Shown here piece by piece: positions 3,162-51,900 of a DNA stretch of 64,000 nucleotides. The notes beneath the pieces were generated by a model. That model was given only the letters and a program-made list of their open reading frames with translations. It did no database searches and had not been told where the DNA came from. The DNA comes from Escherichia phage EC100. How positions within the stretch are numbered: the stretch's first letter is position 1; every line of letters begins with the position of its first letter. The translations under genes and the position numbers were made by a program. The DNA lies in the sequence record NC_105587.1; one strand, given 5' to 3'.

Positions 3162-3845
3162 TCATCTATTTTTCTTAATACTTTTAGGATCTTTCCCTGT
3201 TAGGGACTTATACCTTTTCCTTAATCCAGTATCAGACAATCCTAGTTCTTTGGAGGCACGAATCCAGGAATATTTAGATACCCAGTACTCTATTTGCTCC
3301 ACAGTAATATCTGGATTTATAGTTATCTCTTTAGGAGTACATGATTTACAGTGTGTTGCTCTTGAGCTAATTTCGCAGTGACAAATAGCACACGTATTTA
3401 CAGTCCTTTCTGTATACCTGCCAATATTTTTGCCTGCATGAGTAGGTGTTAGTGCATGGCAATTTGGGCATAGGAAGGCTAAGTTATCCCATTCATTATT
3501 ATAGTGATTTCCATCCTTGTGTTCAAGTTCTAAAGGAATTGGTTTATCTAACCAACTTTCTAAGCCACAACTCTCACATTTATGTGGTTTTAGCCCCTCG
3601 TTAAGAATTTTATTCTTTAGTTTATAGGAAGAAATAGGGCTGCCGTTATATAAATACTCTGTTGCAGACTTATATTTATTATCATACTGCCTATTCGCAG
3701 GAATAACTACTATTCCTAGTTTTCCTAAATATGCTTCCAAAGTGTTCGAGGAGCAGGATAGCATTCTTGCTATCTCTGCTTTAGATTTTCCCTGAGCTAT
3801 CCACTGAGCTATTTCTTCCTTTCTATCTAGTATATCAGTTCTCAT
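3162..3845 (-). CDS. HNH homing endonuclease with N-terminal helix-turn-helix domain
   Basis: HNH motif region HKCESCG...ELEHKDGNHYNNEWDNLAFLCPNCH plus further Cys/His clusters; weak ribosome-binding site; located inside the tRNA island. Confidence 0.7.
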   Translation of the reverse strand: MRTDILDRKEEIAQWIAQGKSKAEIARMLSCSSNTLEAYLGKLGIVVIPANRQYDNKYKSATEYLYNGSPISSYKLKNKILNEGLKPHKCESCGLESWLDKPIPLELEHKDGNHYNNEWDNLAFLCPNCHALTPTHAGKNIGRYTERTVNTCAICHCEISSRATHCKSCTPKEITINPDITVEQIEYWVSKYSWIRASKELGLSDTGLRKRYKSLTGKDPKSIKKNR

Positions 3846-3868
3846 AGTTTATGACTTTATAATTAAGT

Positions 3869-3946
3869 TGGTGGCTCCCCGAGGATTCGAACCTACGTAC
3901 CTTCCGGTTATGAGCCGGGTGCTCATACCATATGAGCTTGAGAACC
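3869..3946 (-). tRNA. tRNA with anticodon CAU (Met or Ile2-type)
   Basis: Acceptor GGTTCTC/GGGAGCC, D-stem GCTC/GAGC, anticodon loop CTCATAA on a CCGG stem, T-loop TTCGAAT, CCA. T-stem pairs only partially. Confidence 0.5.
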
Positions 3947-11175: not shown

Positions 11176-11877
11176 TCAAATTTTCATTTTTTCGATCATA
11201 GCTGCAACACAATAGCTCTCAACTAAGGCATCAAATGCTGGGTCGTGCTTAACCGGATAGATCCCATAACGAATGGTGTCCATCTTCTCCATTTTAGCTT
11301 TTGCCCAGCTAATACCTTCAGCCTCTAGATCTTTGTAACTATAACCAGCTTGCATCCAGAGATTACGGAGAGATCGAACATTGCCCAAATTCCAGAATTT
11401 CCACGGAACTACCTCTTCATTGGTTCCAGCATGGAACGTGTTTGCAGAGTAGATAGTCATATCAAACTCTGGGCCATTGCCATAATACAAAGCATTTTCG
11501 CCTAGAGCCAACTCCATAATATTTTGAGCCATAGAGAAGGCAGCATAGTTTGAGCCGAGTTTATTAGTGCAATGATGTTTACCATTTTGGAAGGCAATCA
11601 GTTTTGGATTACGTCCCTTCATAGCTTCCATAATGTGGATAGCAGACGGGCTATTTTTAGCTTGATCCATCCAGAATGCTAGAGTAGATGCTGTAACTTT
11701 GGCACCAGAATTAAGCTGATCTTGTACATCCAAAGTAACAAATATTAGATCAGGGTCTTTATCAATTCCTTGCATAGCCACAAAAGCGAAAGAAGGCATT
11801 GCGATATGAGTAGTACCACAATCTCCTGGAGTTCCCAGAGATTCAATATCTAGCATACCAAATGGTTTTACTTTCAT
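11176..11877 (-). CDS. DEDDh-type 3'-5' exonuclease (DnaQ-like fold)
   Basis: Exo I motif MLDIESLG, Exo III motif YPVKHDPAFDA; AAAGGA ribosome-binding site. Confidence 0.6.
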   Translation of the reverse strand: MKVKPFGMLDIESLGTPGDCGTTHIAMPSFAFVAMQGIDKDPDLIFVTLDVQDQLNSGAKVTASTLAFWMDQAKNSPSAIHIMEAMKGRNPKLIAFQNGKHHCTNKLGSNYAAFSMAQNIMELALGENALYYGNGPEFDMTIYSANTFHAGTNEEVVPWKFWNLGNVRSLRNLWMQAGYSYKDLEAEGISWAKAKMEKMDTIRYGIYPVKHDPAFDALVESYCVAAMIEKMKI

Positions 11878-12463: not shown

Positions 12464-12979
12464 TTACTTCGCTTTACGCTTGCGCGCTGGTTTAGCAGAT
12501 TTACGAGCAGAATCACCCGTGAACTTAATGCCTACACCGTAGCACAGAGCACGAACATTATCTTTACTATACTCTACGCCAAAGATATTTGGCTTAACAG
12601 ACCCAAACTGTCCATGAGTATCACGCAATACATCTGCTGTTGGTTTACGCTTCTGGTTAACTGCCTTCTCATAGTCTTTCATAGACATACCATTACGAGA
12701 GAACAACTCAGCCCCAGCGTTGAAGCTCAGGGAAACTGGGACAGATTTGTGGCCGTAATTTTCTACATACATAACCATTTTGTAAGATTTACGGGTGGCA
12801 TTTTTAGCTTTAGGCTTCTGACGAATCGGAGCCGGATTATTCAGTGCTTGCGCAGCCTGAGCATCGGTAGGGTGCTTACGCAGGTGGCGTTCCAGACGAG
12901 CTTTGCGATTAGCCTCGGTCTGTGGGAAAGTTTTAACTGTAGTAGCTGCTTGAGTTTTTGCGTTTTTCTGCTTAGCCAT
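12464..12979 (-). CDS. lysine-rich basic protein, possibly nucleic-acid binding (171 aa)
   Basis: ATG start; basic N- and C-termini (KARLERHLRKH, KPARKRKAK). Confidence 0.5.
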   Translation of the reverse strand: MAKQKNAKTQAATTVKTFPQTEANRKARLERHLRKHPTDAQAAQALNNPAPIRQKPKAKNATRKSYKMVMYVENYGHKSVPVSLSFNAGAELFSRNGMSMKDYEKAVNQKRKPTADVLRDTHGQFGSVKPNIFGVEYSKDNVRALCYGVGIKFTGDSARKSAKPARKRKAK

Positions 12980-13017: not shown

Positions 13018-13046
13018 ATTATACGAGAATTTGAAGCGTTTAGCAA
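13018..13046 (-). promoter_or_regulatory. T5 early-class promoter (TTGCTA, 17 bp, TATAAT)
   Basis: Minus-strand consensus hexamers upstream of 12464..12979. Confidence 0.6.
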
Positions 13047-13054
13047 ATGAATTT

Positions 13055-13504
13055 TTAATTTATTAACTGTAAGCTTCTTTTAATTTCAGACCTTACCTGC
13101 ATCAAAAGAACTCCCAAAGTATTATCCCCGATGCCTCGGCAAACACCCCAATATGTATCTCCCCAGGTATTTCCTTCAATCAAAGTTGCATTTTCTGTTG
13201 CTAACAGTTTATCTCTCAAATCAGGGAGTGCAAACTTTAACCGTAAAAGCTCTAGCATTACATCATCTTTTACCTTATCCCAGTCAGAGCGTAGAGTTAA
13301 TTTACGTCCTCTACGTTTAGCAACTCCTGCATTTAGGGAGCGTAGTACATGAGCTACATCATCTTTTTGGTCGGATTTCATAGCCTGAAAAGCATGTTCT
13401 ACAGTATCAGCATGCCATATTTCATTTAGATATTCGAAAGTAATTGGTGATAAATAAAAGTTAGATAAGAAACTATAAGCACCTTTAAATTCAGTAATCT
13501 TCAT
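13055..13504 (-). CDS. NADAR / YbiA-like domain protein
   Basis: Family motifs FLSNFY, EHAFQAMK, and C-terminal WGDTYWGVCRGIGDNTLGVLLMQVR. Confidence 0.65.
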   Translation of the reverse strand: MKITEFKGAYSFLSNFYLSPITFEYLNEIWHADTVEHAFQAMKSDQKDDVAHVLRSLNAGVAKRRGRKLTLRSDWDKVKDDVMLELLRLKFALPDLRDKLLATENATLIEGNTWGDTYWGVCRGIGDNTLGVLLMQVRSEIKRSLQLIN

Positions 13505-13785
13505 TTTTTACGCCCCGCATCTTTGGCCTCTTCGGCTGTATAGATATACTGGTAAGCCCCTTTGGAGTAGGCTGGAGCAGTACACAGTTTCTTACGCTCA
13601 ATCTCTTCTTGAGCTTTTCTTTCGCGTTCAGCTAATTCTTCATCCAGATAAACTAAACGTTGTTCTGGAGGAGGTGGAAGACGTGTTTCTGGCTCACCAA
13701 TATTAGCCTTTCTTATTTGACGAGGTGATTGTGCACGTTTTCTCAATGATTTAAACCCTAGTGAATTTGAGTTATAAATTCGCAT
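13501..13785 (-). CDS. hypothetical protein (94 aa)
   Basis: ATG with GAGGAGG ribosome-binding site; stop overlaps the NADAR start. Confidence 0.5.
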   Translation of the reverse strand: MRIYNSNSLGFKSLRKRAQSPRQIRKANIGEPETRLPPPPEQRLVYLDEELAERERKAQEEIERKKLCTAPAYSKGAYQYIYTAEEAKDAGRKK

Positions 13786-13861
13786 AAAGCCCTCCTCACT
13801 TTCAATACGAATATTATACTAAATTAGAGAGCTTTAAGCAAGAAGATTTTTAATTTATTTA

Positions 13862-14338
13862 TCACATCTCAGCCATTTCAGCTTCAGTAATAACTGTGTT
13901 ACACAAAGCATCTACAGCTTCATTACCACTAATACCAGAATGTCCTTTAACCTTAATAAAGGTAGGATTAGTATTATGAAAGTTGATATACTGCTGTGTT
14001 AATTTAAATGCTTCCTGCCAAAGTTCTAGATTAAGAGGAACTTCACCATCTGCTTTCTTCCAGCCTTTTCTTTGCCAAGAAAACATCCAACTTTCCATAC
14101 CATTTTTGCAATAAGCAGAGTCAGTATAGATAATAATTGGTCTATTATCTTTTTTAACGGACCAACGTAGAGCTTCTACAATAGCCGTGAGTTCCATCTC
14201 ATTATTTGTAGTTTTAGGACTATACCCAGATTTAGAACCTAAACGATCGTCGTTATCATCATAGACAATAAAACCCCAAGCACCTAAACCCGGATTGCCT
14301 TTACATGCACCATCTGTGTAAATGTGGAAAACCGACAT
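13862..14338 (-). CDS. rnh: ribonuclease H (RNase HI-like)
   Basis: IYTDGACKGNPGLGAWG and downstream TNNEMEL...YTDS catalytic residues; 158 aa. Confidence 0.85.
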   Translation of the reverse strand: MSVFHIYTDGACKGNPGLGAWGFIVYDDNDDRLGSKSGYSPKTTNNEMELTAIVEALRWSVKKDNRPIIIYTDSAYCKNGMESWMFSWQRKGWKKADGEVPLNLELWQEAFKLTQQYINFHNTNPTFIKVKGHSGISGNEAVDALCNTVITEAEMAEM

Positions 14339-14538
14339 TATTTTTCACCTTCTGTTATCTCTTTAGTTTTTGACTGGGTAGGAGACTTGGGTTTTATAGC
14401 CTCTAACTCTCTATCCAGAAATTCCTCTATTGCTCTATCTACAAAATAATCATATGGTAAATGATAATATTCTGATAGAGTAAGAAGTTTGAGTTCTTGC
14501 TTTTCTGTTAAATAAACTTTCTTTCTAAAGAGTCCCAT
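14338..14538 (-). CDS. hypothetical protein (66 aa)
   Basis: ATG ORF whose stop overlaps the rnh start (TAATG). Confidence 0.4.
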   Translation of the reverse strand: MGLFRKKVYLTEKQELKLLTLSEYYHLPYDYFVDRAIEEFLDRELEAIKPKSPTQSKTKEITEGEK

Positions 14539-15472: not shown

Positions 15473-16005
15473 TAATAAGTAACCAATTCCTGTACAAATC
15501 GCAGGCTGTTATCACTGTTTGCGCCAACTGCATAGACTAATCGGGTGGATTCATAATTATAATCCAGTATCATACTATCTAGGTGTATATCTGCCTCTAG
15601 CTTCTGTTCGCTAAAGATTGTAGATACAAAAGCACTTTCTATATGCCCATGTTGGTACATTTCTAGAAGAAGATTAGCTCCGCCTAGAACTACTGTTTGC
15701 TGATCTTTTAGAAAAGTAGGTAATGTATCACCTATCATTGATATGGGAGTGTAAATATCATGTGTAATATCGTCTGGCAGTGGACGATCAGCACGAATAA
15801 ATAGGTCAGAAGCTCCAATCATACGTTCCCTAACGGCGTATGGAAGAGCTAAATAAGTACCTGCCCCAATAATAATATTATCAGGATTTAGTACATCTAA
15901 TTGTGAATAAAAAGCATCTAGTTCTTCTTTAAAAGAACCCCAGGGAAGCTTACCTCGGAGGCCGAACTCCCCATTCGGCCCAACTGCATATATTGCTGTA
16001 ATCAT
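15472..16005 (-). CDS. frd: dihydrofolate reductase
   Basis: N-terminal IYAVGPNGEFGLRGKLPW typical of DHFR; 177 aa; translationally coupled between nrdB and thyA. Confidence 0.85.
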   Translation of the reverse strand: MITAIYAVGPNGEFGLRGKLPWGSFKEELDAFYSQLDVLNPDNIIIGAGTYLALPYAVRERMIGASDLFIRADRPLPDDITHDIYTPISMIGDTLPTFLKDQQTVVLGGANLLLEMYQHGHIESAFVSTIFSEQKLEADIHLDSMILDYNYESTRLVYAVGANSDNSLRFVQELVTY

Positions 16006-17147
16006 AGGAAATCTCCAAATTCATTGCCCAGATCTTTCAGAGTATCAGTAGAGGTCTCAGTTACCTGACCTACACGGTAAGCTGCACCAATCTGGATTTC
16101 TTGTGGAGCAGGCTGTAGAGAAGTAGTATCCAACCAGTTCATGATCCACGGAATAGGGTTTTTGGTGATTACTGGTAAGTGACTAGGCCATTCTACACCA
16201 ATGTGCATAAATGCGTTACGTCCCACAAAGTACAAGTATTCTTCTAGAAGTTCTGCATTCAAACCAATCAGACTACGACCTTTGAAGATGAAATGACCCC
16301 ATTCAATTTCAGTTTTCAGAGTTTTCAGGAGCTGTGCTGGTGCTTTAGCCACTGCTTCATCTACCAGATCTTTGTCAAACTGCTGGAACATAATCTGGAT
16401 GATTGTTTTAGACATCTGAGTATGTAGGGCTTCATCTTTAGCAATCAACTGCAGATTTTTAGCAATACCTTGCAGAATATCGTTCTCTGCTAACGCAAAG
16501 GTACATGCAAAGGATGCGTAGAACTGCATTGCTTCTAGACCGTAGATTGCAAAATAAGCGTCTAATAACTTAGCCTGAGTTTCACGTTTAACTTCAGGAA
16601 ACTCTGTTTCTGGGTAAGTATTATCACCACGATGATCGCGTACTGCGATGAAATACTGACCTAACTGGTACAATTCATCGAACAGTTCAACAGAATCAGC
16701 GATACGTGCGAATGCTTCTTGGTTTTTAGTTACAGAATCAATAAATTCTGCCGGATCAGTCAGCACATTACGGATAATATTGCTATACGCACGACTATGC
16801 AGGTCTTCAAAATAGCTCCACTGCTTGAGCATACCTTCCAATTCTGGACGGCTTACAAGCGGCATAATAGCTGCTTCAGGAGCACGACTGATAAAGGAAT
16901 CTGTTTGAGTCTGCCATGCTAAGTTCAGGAGTGTGATTTCCTGGATTTCACGTGGGAGATTGGGCCATTGTTTCTTATCTGCTTCCAGACTGATTTCAGT
17001 TTCAGTCCAAAATTGAGAGCGTTGCAGAAGTGCCAGACGTTCTAGTTCTGGATGTGCTACACGTACATAATCTGCGATACCTAGAGAATCGCCCAGGAAA
17101 AGATCAGCGTTAGTATGATCCCAATTCAGGTTTAGTAAAGTAGTCAT
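16002..17147 (-). CDS. nrdB: ribonucleotide reductase class Ia beta subunit
   Basis: 381-aa R2-like protein with di-iron ligand region (DEALHTQM); T5-class promoter immediately upstream. Confidence 0.9.
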   Translation of the reverse strand: MTTLLNLNWDHTNADLFLGDSLGIADYVRVAHPELERLALLQRSQFWTETEISLEADKKQWPNLPREIQEITLLNLAWQTQTDSFISRAPEAAIMPLVSRPELEGMLKQWSYFEDLHSRAYSNIIRNVLTDPAEFIDSVTKNQEAFARIADSVELFDELYQLGQYFIAVRDHRGDNTYPETEFPEVKRETQAKLLDAYFAIYGLEAMQFYASFACTFALAENDILQGIAKNLQLIAKDEALHTQMSKTIIQIMFQQFDKDLVDEAVAKAPAQLLKTLKTEIEWGHFIFKGRSLIGLNAELLEEYLYFVGRNAFMHIGVEWPSHLPVITKNPIPWIMNWLDTTSLQPAPQEIQIGAAYRVGQVTETSTDTLKDLGNEFGDFL

Positions 17148-17178
17148 TGATTTTCCTCTTTCTCACTATTTCAGGAAT

Positions 17179-17207
17179 ATTATAGCAAATCAGGTAGCGA
17201 TTAGCAA
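17179..17207 (-). promoter_or_regulatory. T5 early-class promoter upstream of nrdB
   Basis: Minus-strand TTGCTA-17-TATAAT between the nrdA terminator hairpin and the nrdB start. Confidence 0.55.
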
Positions 17208-17216
17208 GTAAAATTT

Positions 17217-17254
17217 CAAAGAAAAAGGAGACCCGAAGATCTCCTTGTTTTTTA
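17217..17254 (-). terminator. bidirectional hairpin terminator after nrdA
   Basis: AAGGAGA-CCCGAAGA-TCTCCTT hairpin with T-runs on both strands. Confidence 0.6.
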
Positions 17255-19585
17255 TTATAACTGGCAACCACCAGAAGCACAACCCGCTGCTTCTTCACCA
17301 GCTCCTCCACCATTCGCAGTGTTAAAGTTAGCATAATACCAAGTTTTTATACCGTACTTAACAGCAGTCATGAAATCACGAACTACTACTGGGCCAGGGA
17401 TGATTTCATTCTCGAATTTAGAGTAATCATAATACATCTGGAAACTTGATGACTGATTCAAGAATTTTTGGTAAACGGCGTTCCACTTGATCCACTCAGT
17501 GCGATCAATATCATAGGCCAGTTTATAGCTCATTAATGTTTCCCAATCAGTCGCACCTGGGGCAATTGCAATTACTTTATTCACTGCACTACCCTTGATA
17601 GATACAATCTTACGAGGTGGCTCAATTGAGTTGGTAACACCTAACAGAACAGAGGAACTTTCTCCCGGCATCTGAGCAGTCAGAACAGAGTTACGCATAC
17701 CGTATTTCAGAATATCTGCACGGAGAGATTCCCAATCCATTTCTAGACCTACGGATACCAGCTCATCAACAGTTTTCTTATACGTGTCGATTACCAGAAT
17801 TCCTTTGGATGGTTTAGTACGATTAAACCATTCACATGCACCTTGTTCTTTAGCCAGACGTACAGAGGCTTTATGTAGGAAGTAAGACAGTTTTTCAGCC
17901 TCACGGTGAATCCAGTTACGTGCTTCAACGCCTTCATAAGCCAGACCTTCTGCTGCCATTGCACCTGCTGCGTTCATAAGGCCAATACCAACGTTACGAC
18001 GTTTCTTAGCTGTATATTCCATAGTTGGGAACGGATAGTCCTGAATTTCAATAATTGTATCAACGAATTTCAGGAGGATGTAGCAAGTTTTTTCCCACTC
18101 AGCCAGAGATTCCATGCGTCCTAGTACAACACCACCTAAGTTACACAGAGATACTTCCCCAATATCCTCCGGCTTCATTTGATCAAGTTGTTCTTTTGTT
18201 TTATACAGTTCCGTGATATGATGGAGCGGGCGTGTAGGCTGAGTAATTTCAACACAAAGGTTTGTCATACGGATTGGATCAAGGAAGTTACCGTGACGAT
18301 TAGATTCCCCAATGTGGTGCGCATACATGCGTCCTGTTTCCATTCGGATACGTAGCCAGGTATCTAGGATTTCTTTTGCAGAGACTTTAGGAGCTGCTGG
18401 AACTGTTTTTCCTTCGTGGTCGATCTTTGTAAGAGATGCCACACGTTTCTCCGCTGCCACATAGATTTCTTCAAATTTAGCCTCGTCATCACTATAAAAC
18501 GCTTCATGAACTTCTGGAGCATAGAAGTATGACATTAGCGTAATATCTTCATTTTTCAGATAACGTTTTAACAAAAGATTGTTGAAACTCAGAGAATAAT
18601 CCATCTTATCGATTTTATTCTCATCTGTAGCACGTTGTTGCTTAACCTGCATCAACTGGATGATTTCAGGGTCAAAGTAAGGATAGGATACAGTAGCAGA
18701 ACCACCACGAGTTTGCTGAGTATTAGCCTTTACTGATCGGTCAATGTGTCGATAATATGGCAGTTTTCCGGAATGCGGGAATGCCCCATTTCGCACCGGA
18801 TCAGCAATTGATCGGCTTTCAAGATGATACCCGATTCCCGCTCTGGCTGCGACCATTTTAAAAACGATGTGCTCGGCTGTGTCGATTGAATCCAATGTGT
18901 CAGTGGAATCCACGAGGCAGCAACTAGCAAATCCACGGTCACTAGAGCGCAAGCCAACCAATGGCGGCGTAGGAACGTTGATTTTGTGGAGCGACATTGC
19001 ATTGTAGAGGTCGATTGCATCTAGAATTGTCCAGTTAGGTTGAGATAACATCGCCATTGCCATGCCCATATAGGCAAATTGCGGGGTTTCGTAAATTTCG
19101 CCAGTTGCGATATTACGACGGGAATACTTATCAAAGAATTGTTTCAGTCCTCCGCTAGTGAAAAGACGGTCACGATCATGATCAATAACCTGATTCAAAG
19201 CCTCAAACTGCTCATCGGTAATCCATGCACTCATGTCTTCCCATGCACCTACACTAACCATATGATCGTGGAAAAAGCGTAGAGAAGGTGGTTCGAAGGA
19301 ATCATAAAGGCGTTTACGCATCTGCGCAAGACGTAATTCCTTTGCAGGCACGTCGTATGCTGGATTATCTTTGATAAGACTTTCAGCAGCTTTAATTAAC
19401 GCATCCATCAGAGTATCGGAATCTACAACCCCTTTAGGCAGAGTTTTTTGAGCAGCCATAGTAATGGCTGACCAACTTACATCAACTGTTTTGCAACCAT
19501 ACTCTGCCCAACCATTGAGTTTTTCAGGAGCAAAGTCTTCTACAGTACCGTCACGTTTAATTACTTTTTCAATGCGATGGCTCAT
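17255..19585 (-). CDS. nrdA: ribonucleotide reductase class Ia alpha subunit
   Basis: N-terminal ATP-cone (VIKRDGTVEDF), C-terminal Cys pair (GCASGGCQL); start moved to ATG 19585 with AAGGAAAA ribosome-binding site. Confidence 0.9.
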   Translation of the reverse strand: MSHRIEKVIKRDGTVEDFAPEKLNGWAEYGCKTVDVSWSAITMAAQKTLPKGVVDSDTLMDALIKAAESLIKDNPAYDVPAKELRLAQMRKRLYDSFEPPSLRFFHDHMVSVGAWEDMSAWITDEQFEALNQVIDHDRDRLFTSGGLKQFFDKYSRRNIATGEIYETPQFAYMGMAMAMLSQPNWTILDAIDLYNAMSLHKINVPTPPLVGLRSSDRGFASCCLVDSTDTLDSIDTAEHIVFKMVAARAGIGYHLESRSIADPVRNGAFPHSGKLPYYRHIDRSVKANTQQTRGGSATVSYPYFDPEIIQLMQVKQQRATDENKIDKMDYSLSFNNLLLKRYLKNEDITLMSYFYAPEVHEAFYSDDEAKFEEIYVAAEKRVASLTKIDHEGKTVPAAPKVSAKEILDTWLRIRMETGRMYAHHIGESNRHGNFLDPIRMTNLCVEITQPTRPLHHITELYKTKEQLDQMKPEDIGEVSLCNLGGVVLGRMESLAEWEKTCYILLKFVDTIIEIQDYPFPTMEYTAKKRRNVGIGLMNAAGAMAAEGLAYEGVEARNWIHREAEKLSYFLHKASVRLAKEQGACEWFNRTKPSKGILVIDTYKKTVDELVSVGLEMDWESLRADILKYGMRNSVLTAQMPGESSSVLLGVTNSIEPPRKIVSIKGSAVNKVIAIAPGATDWETLMSYKLAYDIDRTEWIKWNAVYQKFLNQSSSFQMYYDYSKFENEIIPGPVVVRDFMTAVKYGIKTWYYANFNTANGGGAGEEAAGCASGGCQL

Positions 19586-19729
19586 TTGGTTTTCCTTTTT
19601 ATAGTTATCAGGATTTAGGAAATAGTTTACTTTATTCTCAGTCATTTGGCAAATAAAATTTTCTGATAGAAAAGGCCCGAGTATTTTCATACCCAGGCCT
19701 TCTGTGTTGTCAGTCTAGTTTTTGGCCAC

Positions 19730-23438: not shown

Positions 23439-23601
23439 TCCAGAAAACATGCTTATTGAGCAGTGGAACTTTGGTTATAATGCTGGTGTAGCTACTTGTA
23501 TTGCTAGATTGGATATGCTTATTAAACAAGAAAAGGTACGCCCGGAGGAAGCAATTTTACTCCGAAATATTATCGAAGGATTTAAGCAAGGAATCGTATA
23601 G
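23407..23601 (+). CDS. hypothetical protein (64 aa)
   Basis: GGAGAA ribosome-binding site; overlaps the preceding ORF. Confidence 0.4.
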   Translation: MDFLNQNLKSNPENMLIEQWNFGYNAGVATCIARLDMLIKQEKVRPEEAILLRNIIEGFKQGIV

Positions 23602-24437
23602 TGCGTAGATTAATTATTATTAGCGGTGCGGGTTTGAGTGTTGAAAGTGGTGTACGAGCTTTTCGTACTGATACTGCTAGTGGTAAAGCATTGTGGGATG
23701 ATTATGACTTAGAAGAGGTATGTAATATTCATGCCTTTCGTGGTAATTTTTATCATAAAACTCATATGTTTTACAACAAGCGTCGTGAAGAGCTAAAAAC
23801 TGTTGAACCCAATCTTGCACACTTGCGTATTGGTGAATGGTATAAGAAATATCCGGGTCAAGTAGTAAACTTGACTACCAACGTTGATGACCTTATTGAG
23901 CGTGCTGGCGTTCCACATAGTGACATTCTGCACATTCATGGGTATTTAAAAGAGGTTGTTGTAGCTGATAGCTACAATAGTAGCAATAAACGAATTATTG
24001 ATATTGGGTATAGCTCTATTGACCCAGATGATTATAAATGGGTTAAACCTAATGTAATCTTCTTCGGGGAACATGCTCCAGCATATGCAGAAATGTACAA
24101 TGTTTTTGATGGTATTACCAGTCAAGATATGATCATTGTGGTTGGTTGCTCTAATCAAGTAATTAACTTCTACTGGGAATTATTCCCTGTTCTTAATCTG
24201 ACTTCTGCAAAACTTATGGTAGTTAACTACTATGATAGTGCTCTAGCGGTGGAACCAGGCTATCAAGGTATGACTCGTAGTGAGATGTACCAATTGGAAG
24301 AACGCGGTATCCCTTACTGGAGTAAAGGTGCGGTAGATGCTTTCAGTGACCCTGGTTTTATTGCTCGTGTAGAAGCCCATTTAGAGGGTAGACCTTATGT
24401 GCCGGAGAGAATGGGGAACAAATATGTCCATAGTTAA
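23601..24437 (+). CDS. Sir2-family (sirtuin/CobB-like) NAD-dependent enzyme, lacking the zinc-binding Cys cluster
   Basis: GAGLSVESGVRAFR (NAD-binding), TTNVDDL, catalytic HIHG, NVIFFGE; no CxxC pairs between HG and FGE; GTG start overlapping the upstream stop. Confidence 0.75.
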   Translation: MRRLIIISGAGLSVESGVRAFRTDTASGKALWDDYDLEEVCNIHAFRGNFYHKTHMFYNKRREELKTVEPNLAHLRIGEWYKKYPGQVVNLTTNVDDLIERAGVPHSDILHIHGYLKEVVVADSYNSSNKRIIDIGYSSIDPDDYKWVKPNVIFFGEHAPAYAEMYNVFDGITSQDMIIVVGCSNQVINFYWELFPVLNLTSAKLMVVNYYDSALAVEPGYQGMTRSEMYQLEERGIPYWSKGAVDAFSDPGFIARVEAHLEGRPYVPERMGNKYVHS

Positions 24438-24606
24438 ATCTGTGTATACACATCCCGATGATATATTTGTATGGGCGGATGGTAGTTGGTGTTATCGATG
24501 TGAGCTATGGGAAATGGACTATAAATCCGATGACTATGGTGTCATATATGTTGATACGGCTGAGTATGATACGTTCTTAGAAAGGAACAAAAATGGAAAT
24601 AAGTAA
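24424..24606 (+). CDS. hypothetical small protein
   Basis: Track ORF 24397..24606; ATG at 24424 chosen; overlaps the Sir2 3' end. Confidence 0.3.
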   Translation: MSIVKSVYTHPDDIFVWADGSWCYRCELWEMDYKSDDYGVIYVDTAEYDTFLERNKNGNK

Positions 24607-25099
24607 TACTCCAATTATTTTTCTAGACATTGATGGGGTGCTTAATTCGAGCATCTCCCACCATCATGCACCTGATGATGAAAAGATTTTCTTTGGAAGT
24701 GACTGGGTTTTTAAACCACTTCTCAAGGCTTTTCAGGACTTTATTCGTCCTTCTCCAATAATGATTGTTGGGGTATCTTCATGGTTCTCTGTCAAGAATG
24801 AGATGGAGAACGTTCAGATTATGGCCGGATTAGATCTTATCGATCGTTTTCTTGGTACAACGGATTTTACTGGTGGTGGGCTATCTAGAGGTAATTCTGT
24901 TCTTCGCTTCGTTGAAAAGCATAAGCTCAAACATTGGTGTGTGCTGGATGACGCTGGTGCTATGATGTATCAGTATCCAACGGTTATAGTCAACGGTAGA
25001 ACTGGAATAAATCTTCAAGATTTAAGAGCTGTTAGCTATATGTTAGAATTTAGTCCAGATCTTGAAATGTGTAAAGCCCTACAACAATTTAAGGTGTAA
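24593..25099 (+). CDS. HAD-superfamily phosphatase-like protein (capless)
   Basis: HAD motif I FLDIDGVLN, motif II VGVSSW, Lys region KHKLKH, motif IV VLDDAG; 168 aa. Confidence 0.55.
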   Translation: MEISNTPIIFLDIDGVLNSSISHHHAPDDEKIFFGSDWVFKPLLKAFQDFIRPSPIMIVGVSSWFSVKNEMENVQIMAGLDLIDRFLGTTDFTGGGLSRGNSVLRFVEKHKLKHWCVLDDAGAMMYQYPTVIVNGRTGINLQDLRAVSYMLEFSPDLEMCKALQQFKV

Positions 25100-25101
25100 A
25101 T

Positions 25102-25530
25102 ATGTTCAATAATGTATTCTCTAAAGAAGCTAACCCAATATTGGTTAATTTTTGGCGTACTCTTCCAGACAACCTGTACAATGAGGCTATTAATGCTCTG
25201 AAAATATGGTGTGAGAATAATGAAATCTCCTTTGCTTTTAAAGGTGAGATTGAAGAAGCTCCCTGTATTGGTTTAATTGTGCAGGTAGAGGATGGCTTTG
25301 AAGAGATTGTCGGCTGGAAAGAGTTAGATGAAATGGGCTTGGTTTTTGCGTTAAACTATAAGCTGTTTATGCCTAATAAGCACCGTATTGTTGTTAACTA
25401 TAAAACCAGTGAATCTCCGGGCTTTCAAGTTAATGAACATTACGGTTGGTCTTACTCACCGGAAGAAGTAAATGATGGTATACAAAAACTTCGTCGTTTT
25501 GGTTATCAAATTCCGGGTTTAACCGCCTAA
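25102..25530 (+). CDS. hypothetical protein, paralog A of a tandem pair
   Basis: Shares SFAF..PCIG, W.EL..MGL..ALN..LF.P and W.Y.P...L.R.G...PGL blocks with the next ORF. Confidence 0.5.
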   Translation: MFNNVFSKEANPILVNFWRTLPDNLYNEAINALKIWCENNEISFAFKGEIEEAPCIGLIVQVEDGFEEIVGWKELDEMGLVFALNYKLFMPNKHRIVVNYKTSESPGFQVNEHYGWSYSPEEVNDGIQKLRRFGYQIPGLTA

Positions 25531-25540
25531 AGGGGGCACA

Positions 25541-25933
25541 ATGGAACAAGTATATTGGCGTCAGATTGATCCTAGTTTGGTGAAGCGTGCGGAGAAGCTG
25601 CTACAACGTTGGTTGGGGGTAAGACAAGCCTCCTTCACTTTTCCGGAGCAGCAAATAGACGATCCCTGTGTTGGTGTTTTCCTATCAGGCTACGCTAGGG
25701 AATGGGAATTGGATTGGAATGAATTGTCTGCTATGGGTTTAATTGTTGCACTAAATTTCTCTTTGTTCCATCCACGTGGTTTGGCCATATGTCGTGTGCC
25801 TGATGACGGTTGTTCGCCCCATCTTTTACAGGTGGAAGATGATATTTGGGAGTACACTCCAGATATTCTCAAAGAAGCCAAAGAACAATTAAACCGTGTT
25901 GGGATCTATGTTCCGGGGCTAAATGATAAATGA
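25541..25933 (+). CDS. hypothetical protein, paralog B of a tandem pair
   Basis: Collinear similarity to 25102..25530; AAGGGGG ribosome-binding site. Confidence 0.5.
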   Translation: MEQVYWRQIDPSLVKRAEKLLQRWLGVRQASFTFPEQQIDDPCVGVFLSGYAREWELDWNELSAMGLIVALNFSLFHPRGLAICRVPDDGCSPHLLQVEDDIWEYTPDILKEAKEQLNRVGIYVPGLNDK

Positions 25934-49489: not shown

Positions 49490-51900
49490 ACAGACTCCCT
49501 CATTTGACGATCTGTTAATTCTTTATGCCAGATTCTAAAGTTTCTGACATGCCCGAAAAGATGTTTCCCACCATCTGCACTAATGCCGCCAATACGAAGA
49601 TTTTTAGATAAACCAGCTTTCCATGTTGTTTTTACAGGCGCACCGAACACAGCGTTTGTTACGCATCTTAATTCTGAGTTTTTGTTACAAACGAAACCTG
49701 TCACCATTTTCCCGCTTGTTTTTGTTGATACTGGCGTATATGACTGACTTACTCCCAACTGAGAATAAGGCAGCGGTTCTACTGTATCACTTGATGGAGC
49801 TCTGAAAGCAACTAATAACTGGTCTTCTGGTAAATTTGCTACATGTACTATCCTTGGGGCTGAGTTTGGAGGTATATCCCAGTTTCTGTTTACCTCAACA
49901 AGTAGACTTAATGGTATAGATGATGGTTGATTGCAATCAGTTGGTATTAAAACCATGTCACTAGCGCGAGTTGCTGGCGCACCTCCTGTGATTATGAATG
50001 AAGAAGCGCACGATCCGGTCTCTACTTGAGGTGTAGCTAAGTTAAGCGATGCACCTGTTTGTATAACACTTTCATTTTCAGGGCATACAATCTCAAAACG
50101 ACAAACAGCAGATAGATCTGTATCAAATCCGAATGTCGTTTCAAAGTACCACCAATCACCATCTTTTACCGATCTTGATGTGTATAAAGGACCAGAAGTT
50201 ACCTTACCAGTATCAAGATCGAGAACTGAATCAGAATGAAAAATTGCTACACCATCAGTTACTTTTGCAAGCCTCATTCGAAGCCTAGAATTAGACCCTG
50301 CTTTAGCACGACATGACACTGTAATATAATCACCCGTTGTTCCGCTAATAGCATTACCTATCACCATGCTCAAAATTTGATAGCCGGCAGCGTTTGGTGC
50401 TTCGTTTGTTACAGTTACACGCCCATAATTGAATCTACCATCGTTTGACTCCTCGATACCTATCGATGCTGTTTTATTCCATAATGCCGGTGAGTTGGAA
50501 TTTAAGAAATAATTAGTTCTTTGCCCTTCAATAAGCAAACCATCTCGTTCAAATCGCGGTTCGTCAACTTCAGCAATGGTCAATATACCGGACTTATTAA
50601 TATATGTCGCAGTTGATGCACGGGTAAAGCTAACAATCTTGTCGCTAGGCAGTGTTATTTCCTCATCACCGACTGTTATTTTTTTATAGCCTGGTGCAAA
50701 GCCGGTGATCATATCTAGAGAATCGTTAAACGGTATCCATACATCTGGAAGAGGTTGAATGTCGGGGGTAGAATTAGCAGCAGCTTCTGATCTATCAGCC
50801 TCAGTTTTTGAACGGTCGGCTTCAGTTTTAGCAGTATTAGCACTATTGGCAGCATTAGTAGCTTGTTTTCCAGCTTCAGTAGCAGAATTTGCAGCATTAG
50901 TTGCAGAAGCAGCAGCTTGGTTTTTTAAAGTTGTTGTCTCAGATACCGCGCTATCCTTAATACCTTGTGTATCTATTTTTAATTGCTCAACATCTGCTTT
51001 TAAAGCTGTTGTCTCTGTTACAGCACTATTTTTAATGGCTTGGGTATCTGTTTTTAATTGCTCAACATCTGCTTTTAAAGCTGTTGTCTCTGTTACAGCA
51101 CTATTTTTAATGGCTTGGGTATCAGATTTTAACTGTTCAACATCTGATTTAAGTCCTTGAATAGTAGTTACAGATTGACTGGCGGAAGTTGCAGATCCTG
51201 CAGCATTAGTTTCACTAGCCTTAGCTTTTGTTTCCGAGGTTTTTGCATTGGTTTCAGAGATTTTTGCCGCAGATGCCGATGCAGCAGCTTGCTCAGAGAA
51301 TATTTCCGCCTCATTCCTAAAACCGTTAGAAGCAGCAGCTGATTGAGCTGCATTAGTCTCACTGATTTTTGCTTTATCTTCACTAATTTTTGCAGCTGCA
51401 GTCGAAGCAGCAGCATTAGTTTCACTAGCCTTAGCATTAGTCTCGGAGGCCTTAGCTTTGGTTTCACTAGACTTTGCATTAGTTTCTGATGTTTTTGCAT
51501 TAGTCTCGGAGGTTTTAGCCTTAGTTTCACTAGCTTTCGCATTAGTCTCGGATACTTTAGCTGCTGCAGCTGATTCTGCAGATTTAGTAGCAGAAGTGGC
51601 AGACTGAGTAGCAGAAGTAGCTGATTGGGTAGCCGATGCTTCAGAAGCTCCAGCGGAAATAGCAGCTTCCTGCTCCGAATTCTTAGCATTAAGTTCTGAG
51701 GTTTTAGCTGCTATTTCAGAATCTTTTGCAGCCGCAGCAGATTTAGCAGCGGCCTCTATAGAGGATACTAACTCATTAGCAGTAATAGAGCTAATAGAAT
51801 TTCCAAGAGTTACTGTGTATCTAGGAAATTTACTAGCAGTAGCTTTAGTATCATCAATATTTAATATTTGTTGTACAATAATCTTAGTAGTTATTGCCAT
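49486..51900 (-). CDS. tail fibre protein with Ala/Ser/Thr-rich repeat shaft and C-terminal LamG-like domain
   Basis: 804 aa; SETNAK-type hexapeptide repeats, two to three 25-aa repeats (TETTALKADVEQLKTDTQAIKNSAV), C-terminus GHVRNFRIWHKELTDRQM resembling LamG jelly-roll ends. Confidence 0.7.
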   Translation of the reverse strand: MAITTKIIVQQILNIDDTKATASKFPRYTVTLGNSISSITANELVSSIEAAAKSAAAAKDSEIAAKTSELNAKNSEQEAAISAGASEASATQSATSATQSATSATKSAESAAAAKVSETNAKASETKAKTSETNAKTSETNAKSSETKAKASETNAKASETNAAASTAAAKISEDKAKISETNAAQSAAASNGFRNEAEIFSEQAAASASAAKISETNAKTSETKAKASETNAAGSATSASQSVTTIQGLKSDVEQLKSDTQAIKNSAVTETTALKADVEQLKTDTQAIKNSAVTETTALKADVEQLKIDTQGIKDSAVSETTTLKNQAAASATNAANSATEAGKQATNAANSANTAKTEADRSKTEADRSEAAANSTPDIQPLPDVWIPFNDSLDMITGFAPGYKKITVGDEEITLPSDKIVSFTRASTATYINKSGILTIAEVDEPRFERDGLLIEGQRTNYFLNSNSPALWNKTASIGIEESNDGRFNYGRVTVTNEAPNAAGYQILSMVIGNAISGTTGDYITVSCRAKAGSNSRLRMRLAKVTDGVAIFHSDSVLDLDTGKVTSGPLYTSRSVKDGDWWYFETTFGFDTDLSAVCRFEIVCPENESVIQTGASLNLATPQVETGSCASSFIITGGAPATRASDMVLIPTDCNQPSSIPLSLLVEVNRNWDIPPNSAPRIVHVANLPEDQLLVAFRAPSSDTVEPLPYSQLGVSQSYTPVSTKTSGKMVTGFVCNKNSELRCVTNAVFGAPVKTTWKAGLSKNLRIGGISADGGKHLFGHVRNFRIWHKELTDRQMRESV
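50910..51140. repeat. tandem repeat of about 75 bp, roughly three copies, inside the 804-aa fibre gene
   Basis: GCTCAACATCTGCTTTTAAAGCTGTTGTCTCTGTTACAGCACTATTTTTAATGGCTTGGGTATC occurs twice nearly identically with a diverged third copy; encodes 25-aa repeats. Confidence 0.7.
51170..51560. repeat. short 18-bp coding repeats (hexapeptide SETNAK-type) in the fibre gene
   Basis: Recurring TTAGCATTAGTCTCGGAGG / TTTGCATTAGTTTCTGATG units on the plus strand. Confidence 0.6.

Follow-up and report, generated by a model that had tools for sequence, protein, structure and literature searches.

An orphan NADAR-domain protein of Escherichia phage EC100 assigned by orthology to the anti-DarT1 factor AdfN

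The stretch of Escherichia phage EC100 analyzed here (NC_105587.1; 64,000 nucleotides, hereafter the window) encodes, at 13055..13504 on the minus strand, an orphan single-domain NADAR protein that is very probably an ADP-ribosylglycohydrolase reversing DarT1 marks on phage DNA. By sequence orthology we assign this protein to AdfN (anti-DarT factor NADAR), as the ortholog of AdfN-Bas32, with E36, K43, and E110 as predicted catalytic residues; the assignment draws on the Pfam match, 98% identity, the invariant residues, and the predicted fold. The function is already known, having been published for an essentially identical protein, and nothing reported here is conceptually new with respect to that work. 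The anatomy of the gene (an ATGA coupling and a cassette organization), its distribution, its YbiA-class glutamate, and a divergent allele in phage UTK0009 are new but minor.

The main value of the analysis lies in annotation. In public records the gene is carried under the labels “GTP cyclohydrolase II,” “swarming motility protein YbiA,” “DUF1768 domain-containing protein,” “antitoxin-like enzyme,” and “hypothetical protein.” The first two of these are misleading, and a better label would be “AdfN-type anti-DarTG1 ADP-ribosylglycohydrolase.”

The NADAR-domain protein and its active site

The CDS at 13055..13504 (minus strand; ORF listing) opens with an ATG and encodes 149 amino acids. The ORF is real, and its product is a clear NADAR-domain protein: Pfam NADAR (PF08719, DUF1768; gathering cut-off, 35.1 bits) matches it over profile positions 9-163 of 163 with E=8.9e-22 and 78.5 bits, phrog_1017 matches it with E=1.8e-44, and phmmer against PDB sequences recovers E. 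coli YbiA (2b3w, E=3e-15) and the NADAR domain protein 8bau (E=8e-7). The Pfam match lies far beyond chance and, together with phrog_1017 and the phmmer match to 2b3w, bears out the initial annotation, which had placed the ORF in the NADAR family. Two of the motifs named there, FLSNFY (residues 12-17) and EHAFQAMK (residues 36-43), are present as described. The third, given as WG.G...GDN, was slightly mis-transcribed, the protein reading WGVCRGIGDN at residues 119-128 (WG...G.GDN), with C instead of G at residue 122.

The protein was aligned with 52 homologs of 47-98% identity, drawn from 1038 hits at E<=0.001. Across these 53 sequences, L13, S14, N15, F16, E36, Q40, K43, E110, W114, D116, W119, G120, G126, and N128 are invariant, among others, and K63, G66, R72, and W75 are at least 90% conserved. 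The conserved Glu/Lys pair is represented by E36 and K43, within VEHAFQAMK. In NADAR enzymes the catalytic Glu and Lys lie seven residues apart, as in Phytophthora nicotianae (E43/K50) and E. coli C7 (E88/K95) (PMC11543638). A MAFFT alignment with YbiA, T4 gp30.3, and the UTK0009 homolog equates E36/K43 with YbiA E48/K55 and with T4 AdfN E36/K43, the latter being the residues mutated by Johannesman et al. (PMC11825919). In the same alignment, E110 pairs with YbiA E125 and with a His in T4 gp30.3. This third catalytic position is a Glu in the YbiA class, an Asp in DarT1-associated NADARs, and a His in T4-type phage NADARs (PMC11543638). Aligned with YbiA E125 and invariant among the homologs, E110 reads as the YbiA-class glutamate rather than the T4-type histidine.

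The active site also bears on a reading in which the protein would be a non-catalytic, ADP-ribose-binding inhibitor of an NAD-consuming defence, e.g., Retron-Eco1. The work of Carabias and colleagues on Retron-Eco1 reportedly describes a phage-encoded inhibitor that binds ADP-ribose. Johannesman et al. raise this possibility by pointing to “another phage NADAR,” with Carabias et al. 2024 as their reference (PMC11825919). Against an inhibitor of this kind, the full catalytic set is invariant in the clade, which argues for selection on catalysis, and we regard a purely binding role as very unlikely compared with that of an active hydrolase.

The residue roles are predicted from homology with the NADARs of Phytophthora and E. 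coli C7, with K63, G66, R67, D74, W75, D116, and W119 as the probable ADP-ribose contacts. The Phytophthora NADAR contacts ADP-ribose through K75, G78, R79, D86, W89, and R93 (PMC11543638), and the phmmer alignment to 8bau, with the chain numbering taken as native + 2 when mapping these contacts, places K63, G66, R67, D74, W75, and K79 at the corresponding positions. Phytophthora K75 is equivalent to E. coli C7 K115, which is required for in vivo rescue (PMC11543638). The adenine-stacking Y84 of the Phytophthora NADAR is replaced by R72 in the phage protein. Around E36, the HMMER alignment to 8bau is off by three residues, and the E36/K43 correspondence was taken instead from MAFFT and the E-x6-K spacing.

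AlphaFold2, run on the 53-sequence alignment, predicts the fold with a pLDDT of 97.3 and a pTM of 0.91. When this model is compared with the PDB by Foldseek, there are two significant matches only, namely, YbiA (2b3w, TM 0.83) and the Phytophthora NADAR-ADP-ribose structure (8bau, TM 0.78). An above-threshold match over the full domain profile, a predicted YbiA-like core fold, and the Glu/Lys pair together place the protein in the NADAR superfamily.

Locus, transcription, and distribution of the gene

In the 2-kb region around the NADAR gene, the window matches Escherichia phages EC122, EC104, EC105, and EC142 at 100% identity and numerous T5-like phages of Salmonella and Escherichia at 95-97%; EC122 belongs to the genus Tequintavirus (Demerecviridae, Markadamsvirinae). 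The gene is part of a co-directional minus-strand block comprising nrdA, nrdB, frd (DHFR), thy, a 66-amino-acid ORF, rnh, a 94-amino-acid ORF, NADAR, and a DUF7022 protein. Within it, the nrdA-nrdB-frd-thy-rnh segment is syntenic with the corresponding block of phage T5, which we take to be the early region of T5, and the claim that the gene lies in the early region of a lytic phage is upheld by this position. With rnh, the 94-amino-acid ORF, and the DUF7022 protein as its neighbors and no adjacent DarT, the gene is a phage-encoded orphan.

Elsewhere in the block, the T5 HNH homing endonuclease gene hegH (T5 49536-50060), located between nrdB and nrdA, is missing from the window (about 16000-19700), where the nrdB-nrdA gap amounts to about 100 bp only. 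The 66-amino-acid ORF between thy and rnh (14338-14538, minus strand) has a one-base overlap with the rnh start (ATG at 14338) and no Pfam match. At the same position T5 has no annotated gene, with a 133-bp spacer containing a promoter, and Bas33 has a 93-amino-acid ORF (bas33_0067); the ORF of the window looks like another small accessory insertion.

The TGA stop codon of the 94-amino-acid ORF (13501..13785, minus strand), a homolog of T5.090, overlaps the ATG of the NADAR gene in an ATGA at 13501-13504. Because of this overlap, the two genes are probably cotranscribed and translationally coupled. The 94-amino-acid ORF itself has no Pfam match and no PADLOC match. When the DNA of the window, T5, and Bas33 is aligned three ways and read together with the T5 feature table, phage T5 is seen to lack the NADAR gene: T5.090 is directly followed in T5 by promoter P-H 207 and then T5.089. 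In Bas33 as in the window, the final ~70 nt of the 94-amino-acid ORF have diverged from T5 and are followed by the 450-nt NADAR CDS. T5 homology restarts at 13053, two bases past the NADAR stop codon (CDS end, 13055). Relative to T5, this delimits an accessory cassette at 13053..13570 (minus strand), consisting of the diverged 3' end of the 94-amino-acid ORF and the whole NADAR CDS.

The leader of the gene pair (13786..13830, minus strand) contains a TATAAT at 13813-13818 and the Shine-Dalgarno sequence GAGGAGGG at 13791-13798. A promoter consensus scan upstream of the 94-amino-acid ORF called no -35 and no full -35/-10 promoter. Because the leader is 100% identical to the T5 sequence annotated as the promoter upstream of T5.090, it is likely to be the promoter for the pair. 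Just 3' of the NADAR stop codon lies a sigma-70-like promoter, TTGCTA-17-TATAAT (13018..13046, minus strand), a homolog of T5 P-H 207, which serves the next gene (12464..12979, encoding the DUF7022 protein) and delimits the cassette on that side. From this arrangement, we infer that the NADAR gene is a promoter-less accessory cassette carried on the T5.090 transcription unit.

The lysine-rich DUF7022 protein (12464..12979, minus strand; 171 amino acids; full-length DUF7022 match, E=9e-76) is the homolog of T5.089, and thus conserved in T5, and is served by a promoter of its own (the P-H 207 homolog). Neither of the flanking ORFs matches any PADLOC defence model. When both (94 and 171 amino acids) were searched against family and PADLOC profiles, DUF7022 alone was informative, and there was no sign of a functional system with NADAR. 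Further along on the minus strand, a 233-amino-acid protein (11176-11877) is annotated as “metallopeptidase” in EC122 and Bas33 and as “exonuclease” in T5 (T5.087); the peptidase label looks wrong, since an Rv2179c-like 3'-5' exoribonuclease domain (E=4e-8) is the sole Pfam match. A Sir2-family protein (Pfam SIR2, E=9e-25) is encoded at 23601-24437 on the plus strand, some 10 kb away from the NADAR gene, which gives the phage two genes from NAD-using enzyme families. The neighboring ORF at 24593-25099 (plus strand) is labeled a second “Sir2” in T5 (T5.105), but its product matches HAD_SAK_2 (E=3e-20); after it come two paralogous DUF7415 proteins (25102-25530 and 25541-25933).

Phage records matching the 2-kb region number 442, and about 90 of them cover at least 80% of it, a coverage at which a record contains the NADAR gene. 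At the protein level, 94 records encode the NADAR protein at a minimum of 95% identity. We observe the cassette in about one fifth of T5-like genomes. The 90%-identity cluster of the protein comprises 235 member sequences, and outside it no full-length relative exceeds 60% identity; these relatives come mostly from metagenome assemblies, and those few that carry names are phage proteins. An Epseptimavirus, Salmonella phage vB_SenS_UTK0009 (NC_111487), has another NADAR allele, 60% identical, at 3489-3938 of the examined stretch. There the gene sits one position earlier than in the window, following rnh directly and preceding the T5.090-like ORF. The different gene position of this allele suggests independent acquisition in the same variable neighborhood, pointing to a repeated acquisition of NADAR genes in this variable spot of T5-like phages.

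Anti-DarT1 function and wider readings

In a tblastn search against phage records, a 98.0% identical protein was recovered from Escherichia phage HildyBeyeler (gene bas33_0070), which we identify as BASEL phage Bas33 because its locus tags read bas33_xxxx. The two proteins are identical at 146/149 positions, the differences being A9T, L93I, and E104K, and all three positions vary in the 53-sequence alignment. Bas32 and Bas33, Markadamsvirinae close to T5, encode identical NADAR proteins named AdfN-Bas32, as described by Johannesman, Awasthi, Carlson, and LeRoux (Nat Commun 2025, PMC11825919). In that study, AdfN-Bas32 neutralises DarT1 toxicity in uninfected E. coli, and its ectopic expression brings RB69, T5, and Bas25 back to full titre on DarTG1 hosts, with no rescue on DarTG2, a thymidine modifier (PMC11825919). 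Guanine is the base that DarT1 ADP-ribosylates, and the resulting bond is hydrolysed by NADAR enzymes (Schuller et al. 2023, PMC11543638; Cihlova et al. 2024, PMC11125620).

That the gene encodes a counter-defence enzyme reversing DarT-type guanine ADP-ribosylation, as initially proposed, is supported by the neutralisation of DarT1 reported for a 98%-identical protein and by the intact catalytic residues that we observe. The plaque assay on DarT-carrying hosts put forward as a check is in part already published, as ectopic AdfN-Bas32 restores plaquing on DarTG1 hosts (PMC11825919). Neither a native T5-like phage deleted for the NADAR gene nor an in vitro assay of the ortholog is described in the text examined, and the evidence for AdfN-Bas32 activity comes from ectopic expression. 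Phage T5 is described there as DarTG1 sensitive and as rescued by AdfN-Bas32 in trans (PMC11825919). Since T5 also lacks the NADAR gene, it provides a natural presence/absence contrast that is consistent with the proposed function.

In the mechanism that we propose, the gene would be expressed early, probably from the promoter belonging to the T5.090-like ORF that precedes it and to which it is translationally coupled. The host DarT1 toxin would ADP-ribosylate guanines in replicating, unmodified phage DNA, and the NADAR enzyme would bind the ADP-ribose and cut the ribose-guanine N-glycosidic bond, with K43, K63, and R67 predicted to hold the pyrophosphate and E36 and E110 to hold the distal ribose. 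Normal DNA would thereby be restored, and replication could proceed in DarTG1-carrying cells. We infer both the early timing of the gene and its benefit to the native phage. The three-residue difference from the tested AdfN-Bas32 counts against this explanation.

In addition to this activity, and compatible with it, the protein may act more broadly as a de-ADP-ribosylase, with main natural targets other than, or in addition to, DarT1 products; these could include C-ADPr, RNA-ADPr, and the marks left by other ADP-ribosyltransferases in defences or toxins. It has the YbiA-class E110, and YbiA-type and “NADAR”-type enzymes remove cytidine-ADPr from DNA and RNA, while T4 AdfN and DarG1 do not (PMC12945103). 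Because YbiA-type NADARs remove C-ADPr, a broader role is plausible as an addition, and Johannesman et al. suggest that further defences which ADP-ribosylate DNA or RNA may be detoxified by some phage NADARs (PMC11825919). However, the lack of rescue by AdfN-Bas32 on DarTG2 speaks against such breadth (PMC11825919), and a cytidine-targeting anti-phage ADP-ribosyltransferase was not found in the literature examined; we put forward the added role as a tentative possibility. Taken further, the Glu-type AdfN of T5-like phages would be a general eraser acting on guanine and cytidine in both DNA and RNA and protecting against several ADP-ribosyltransferase or NAD-based defences, and the patchy distribution of the cassette, to which the 60%-identical UTK0009 allele belongs, would reflect repeated capture under selection. 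This extension is speculative and rather unlikely to hold as a whole. If true, it predicts host-range differences among near-identical therapeutic T5-like phages.

A metabolic role, in which the protein would be a YbiA-type N-glycosidase destroying reactive intermediates of the riboflavin pathway, is suggested by GenBank labels such as “GTP cyclohydrolase II / COG3236” and “swarming motility protein YbiA,” by the 41% identity to E. coli YbiA, and by a score of 66.1 bits against TIGR02464 (riboflavin-intermediate N-glycosidase domain), as well as by the many homologs named “ribA/ribD-fused uncharacterized protein” by JGI. However, that score falls under the 73.7-bit cut-off, and no riboflavin gene is fused or nearby. 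The gene is also dispensable, being missing from T5 and most T5-like phages, and a near-identical protein has a demonstrated anti-DarT1 phenotype (PMC11825919). We therefore consider a metabolic role extremely unlikely and retain the assignment as AdfN.

The occurrence of the cassette in about one fifth of T5-like phages, with T5 itself lacking it, makes the presence of the gene a simple genomic predictor of growth on DarTG1 hosts. This predictor covers phage-therapy and biocontrol candidates against E. coli and Salmonella.

Comparison with known NADAR systems

The Phytophthora nicotianae NADAR (8bau) resembles the phage protein in structure (TM 0.78) at 26% identity, and differs from it by extra N-terminal and internal insertions. 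DarG1, the BC4488-type antitoxin of E. coli C7 and G. lovleyi, has the same guanine-ADP-ribose hydrolysis chemistry and the same fold core; E88/K95 of the C7 protein form its catalytic Glu/Lys pair, and C7 K115, important in vivo, corresponds to K63 of the phage protein. In contrast to the phage protein, DarG1 carries about 50 further residues before the Glu, in the form of an N-terminal beta-beta-alpha extension, has an Asp (D171) at the third catalytic position, and is encoded beside darT1. A DarG1/BC4488-type assignment was rejected, given FLSNFY at residue 12, E36 versus C7 E88, a Glu at the third position, and no DarT neighbor.

Several profile-defined families were likewise rejected as memberships. 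The protein scores 66.1 bits against the TIGR02464 equivalog (cut-off, 73.7) and 44.5 bits against the DS-32 NADAR anti-phage family NF053876 (cut-off, 240). The match to PADLOC PDC-M42C (27.9 bits) reflects domain-level similarity only, and those to DS32_2 and Drt5 (PADLOC/NCBIfam defence models) are weak and at the domain level.

AdfN-T4 (gp30.3, PF08010-type) is, like the protein at 13055..13504, a phage-encoded orphan NADAR of ~150 amino acids that counters DarTG1, with E36/K43 at the same positions. It differs in sequence (~20% identity) and has a His in place of E110. T4 AdfN is weak outside T-even infection and does not neutralise DarT1 in uninfected cells, whereas AdfN-Bas32 does (PMC11825919). 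Placement of the phage protein in the T4 gp30.3-type clade was rejected on a BLASTP E of 0.6, no PF08010 match, and the Glu E110 instead of His. Among its homologs at ~50% identity, P0042, P0091, and P0113 have precomputed matches to both PF08719 and PF08010, the latter presumably the phage gp30.3 family. Their dual matches hint at intermediates between the clade of the 13055..13504 protein and that of T4 AdfN.

E. coli YbiA (2b3w) is the best match among solved structures (phmmer E=3e-15; TM 0.83), with 41% identity by MAFFT and 36% in the Foldseek alignment. It has in common with the phage protein E48, K55, and E125, as well as the D130/W133 motif, and differs by an N-terminal leader of ~12 residues that is missing from the phage protein. 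YbiA acts on riboflavin intermediates as an N-glycosidase and hydrolyses both G-ADPr and C-ADPr in vitro. It is encoded by a chromosomal LexA-operon gene, and its in vitro activity on G-ADPr is not accompanied by in vivo DarT1 rescue (PMC11125620). Sequence class alone thus fails to predict antitoxin strength, and the AdfN-type phage enzyme is functionally distinct from YbiA despite their common signature. The earlier description of the protein as “YbiA-like” fits its sequence, with 41% identity and a Glu at the class-defining position, although E. coli YbiA itself shows no in vivo DarT1 rescue. In the published grouping, AdfN-Bas32 falls with archaeal NADARs and outside the YbiA group (PMC11825919).

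The closest known system is AdfN-Bas32. Like the protein at 13055..13504, it has 149 amino acids, the same predicted catalytic residues, and a Tequintavirus locus between a T5.090-like ORF and the DUF7022 gene. The two are set apart by A9T, L93I, and E104K and by their phages, which are EC122-like here versus Bas32/33 for the published protein.
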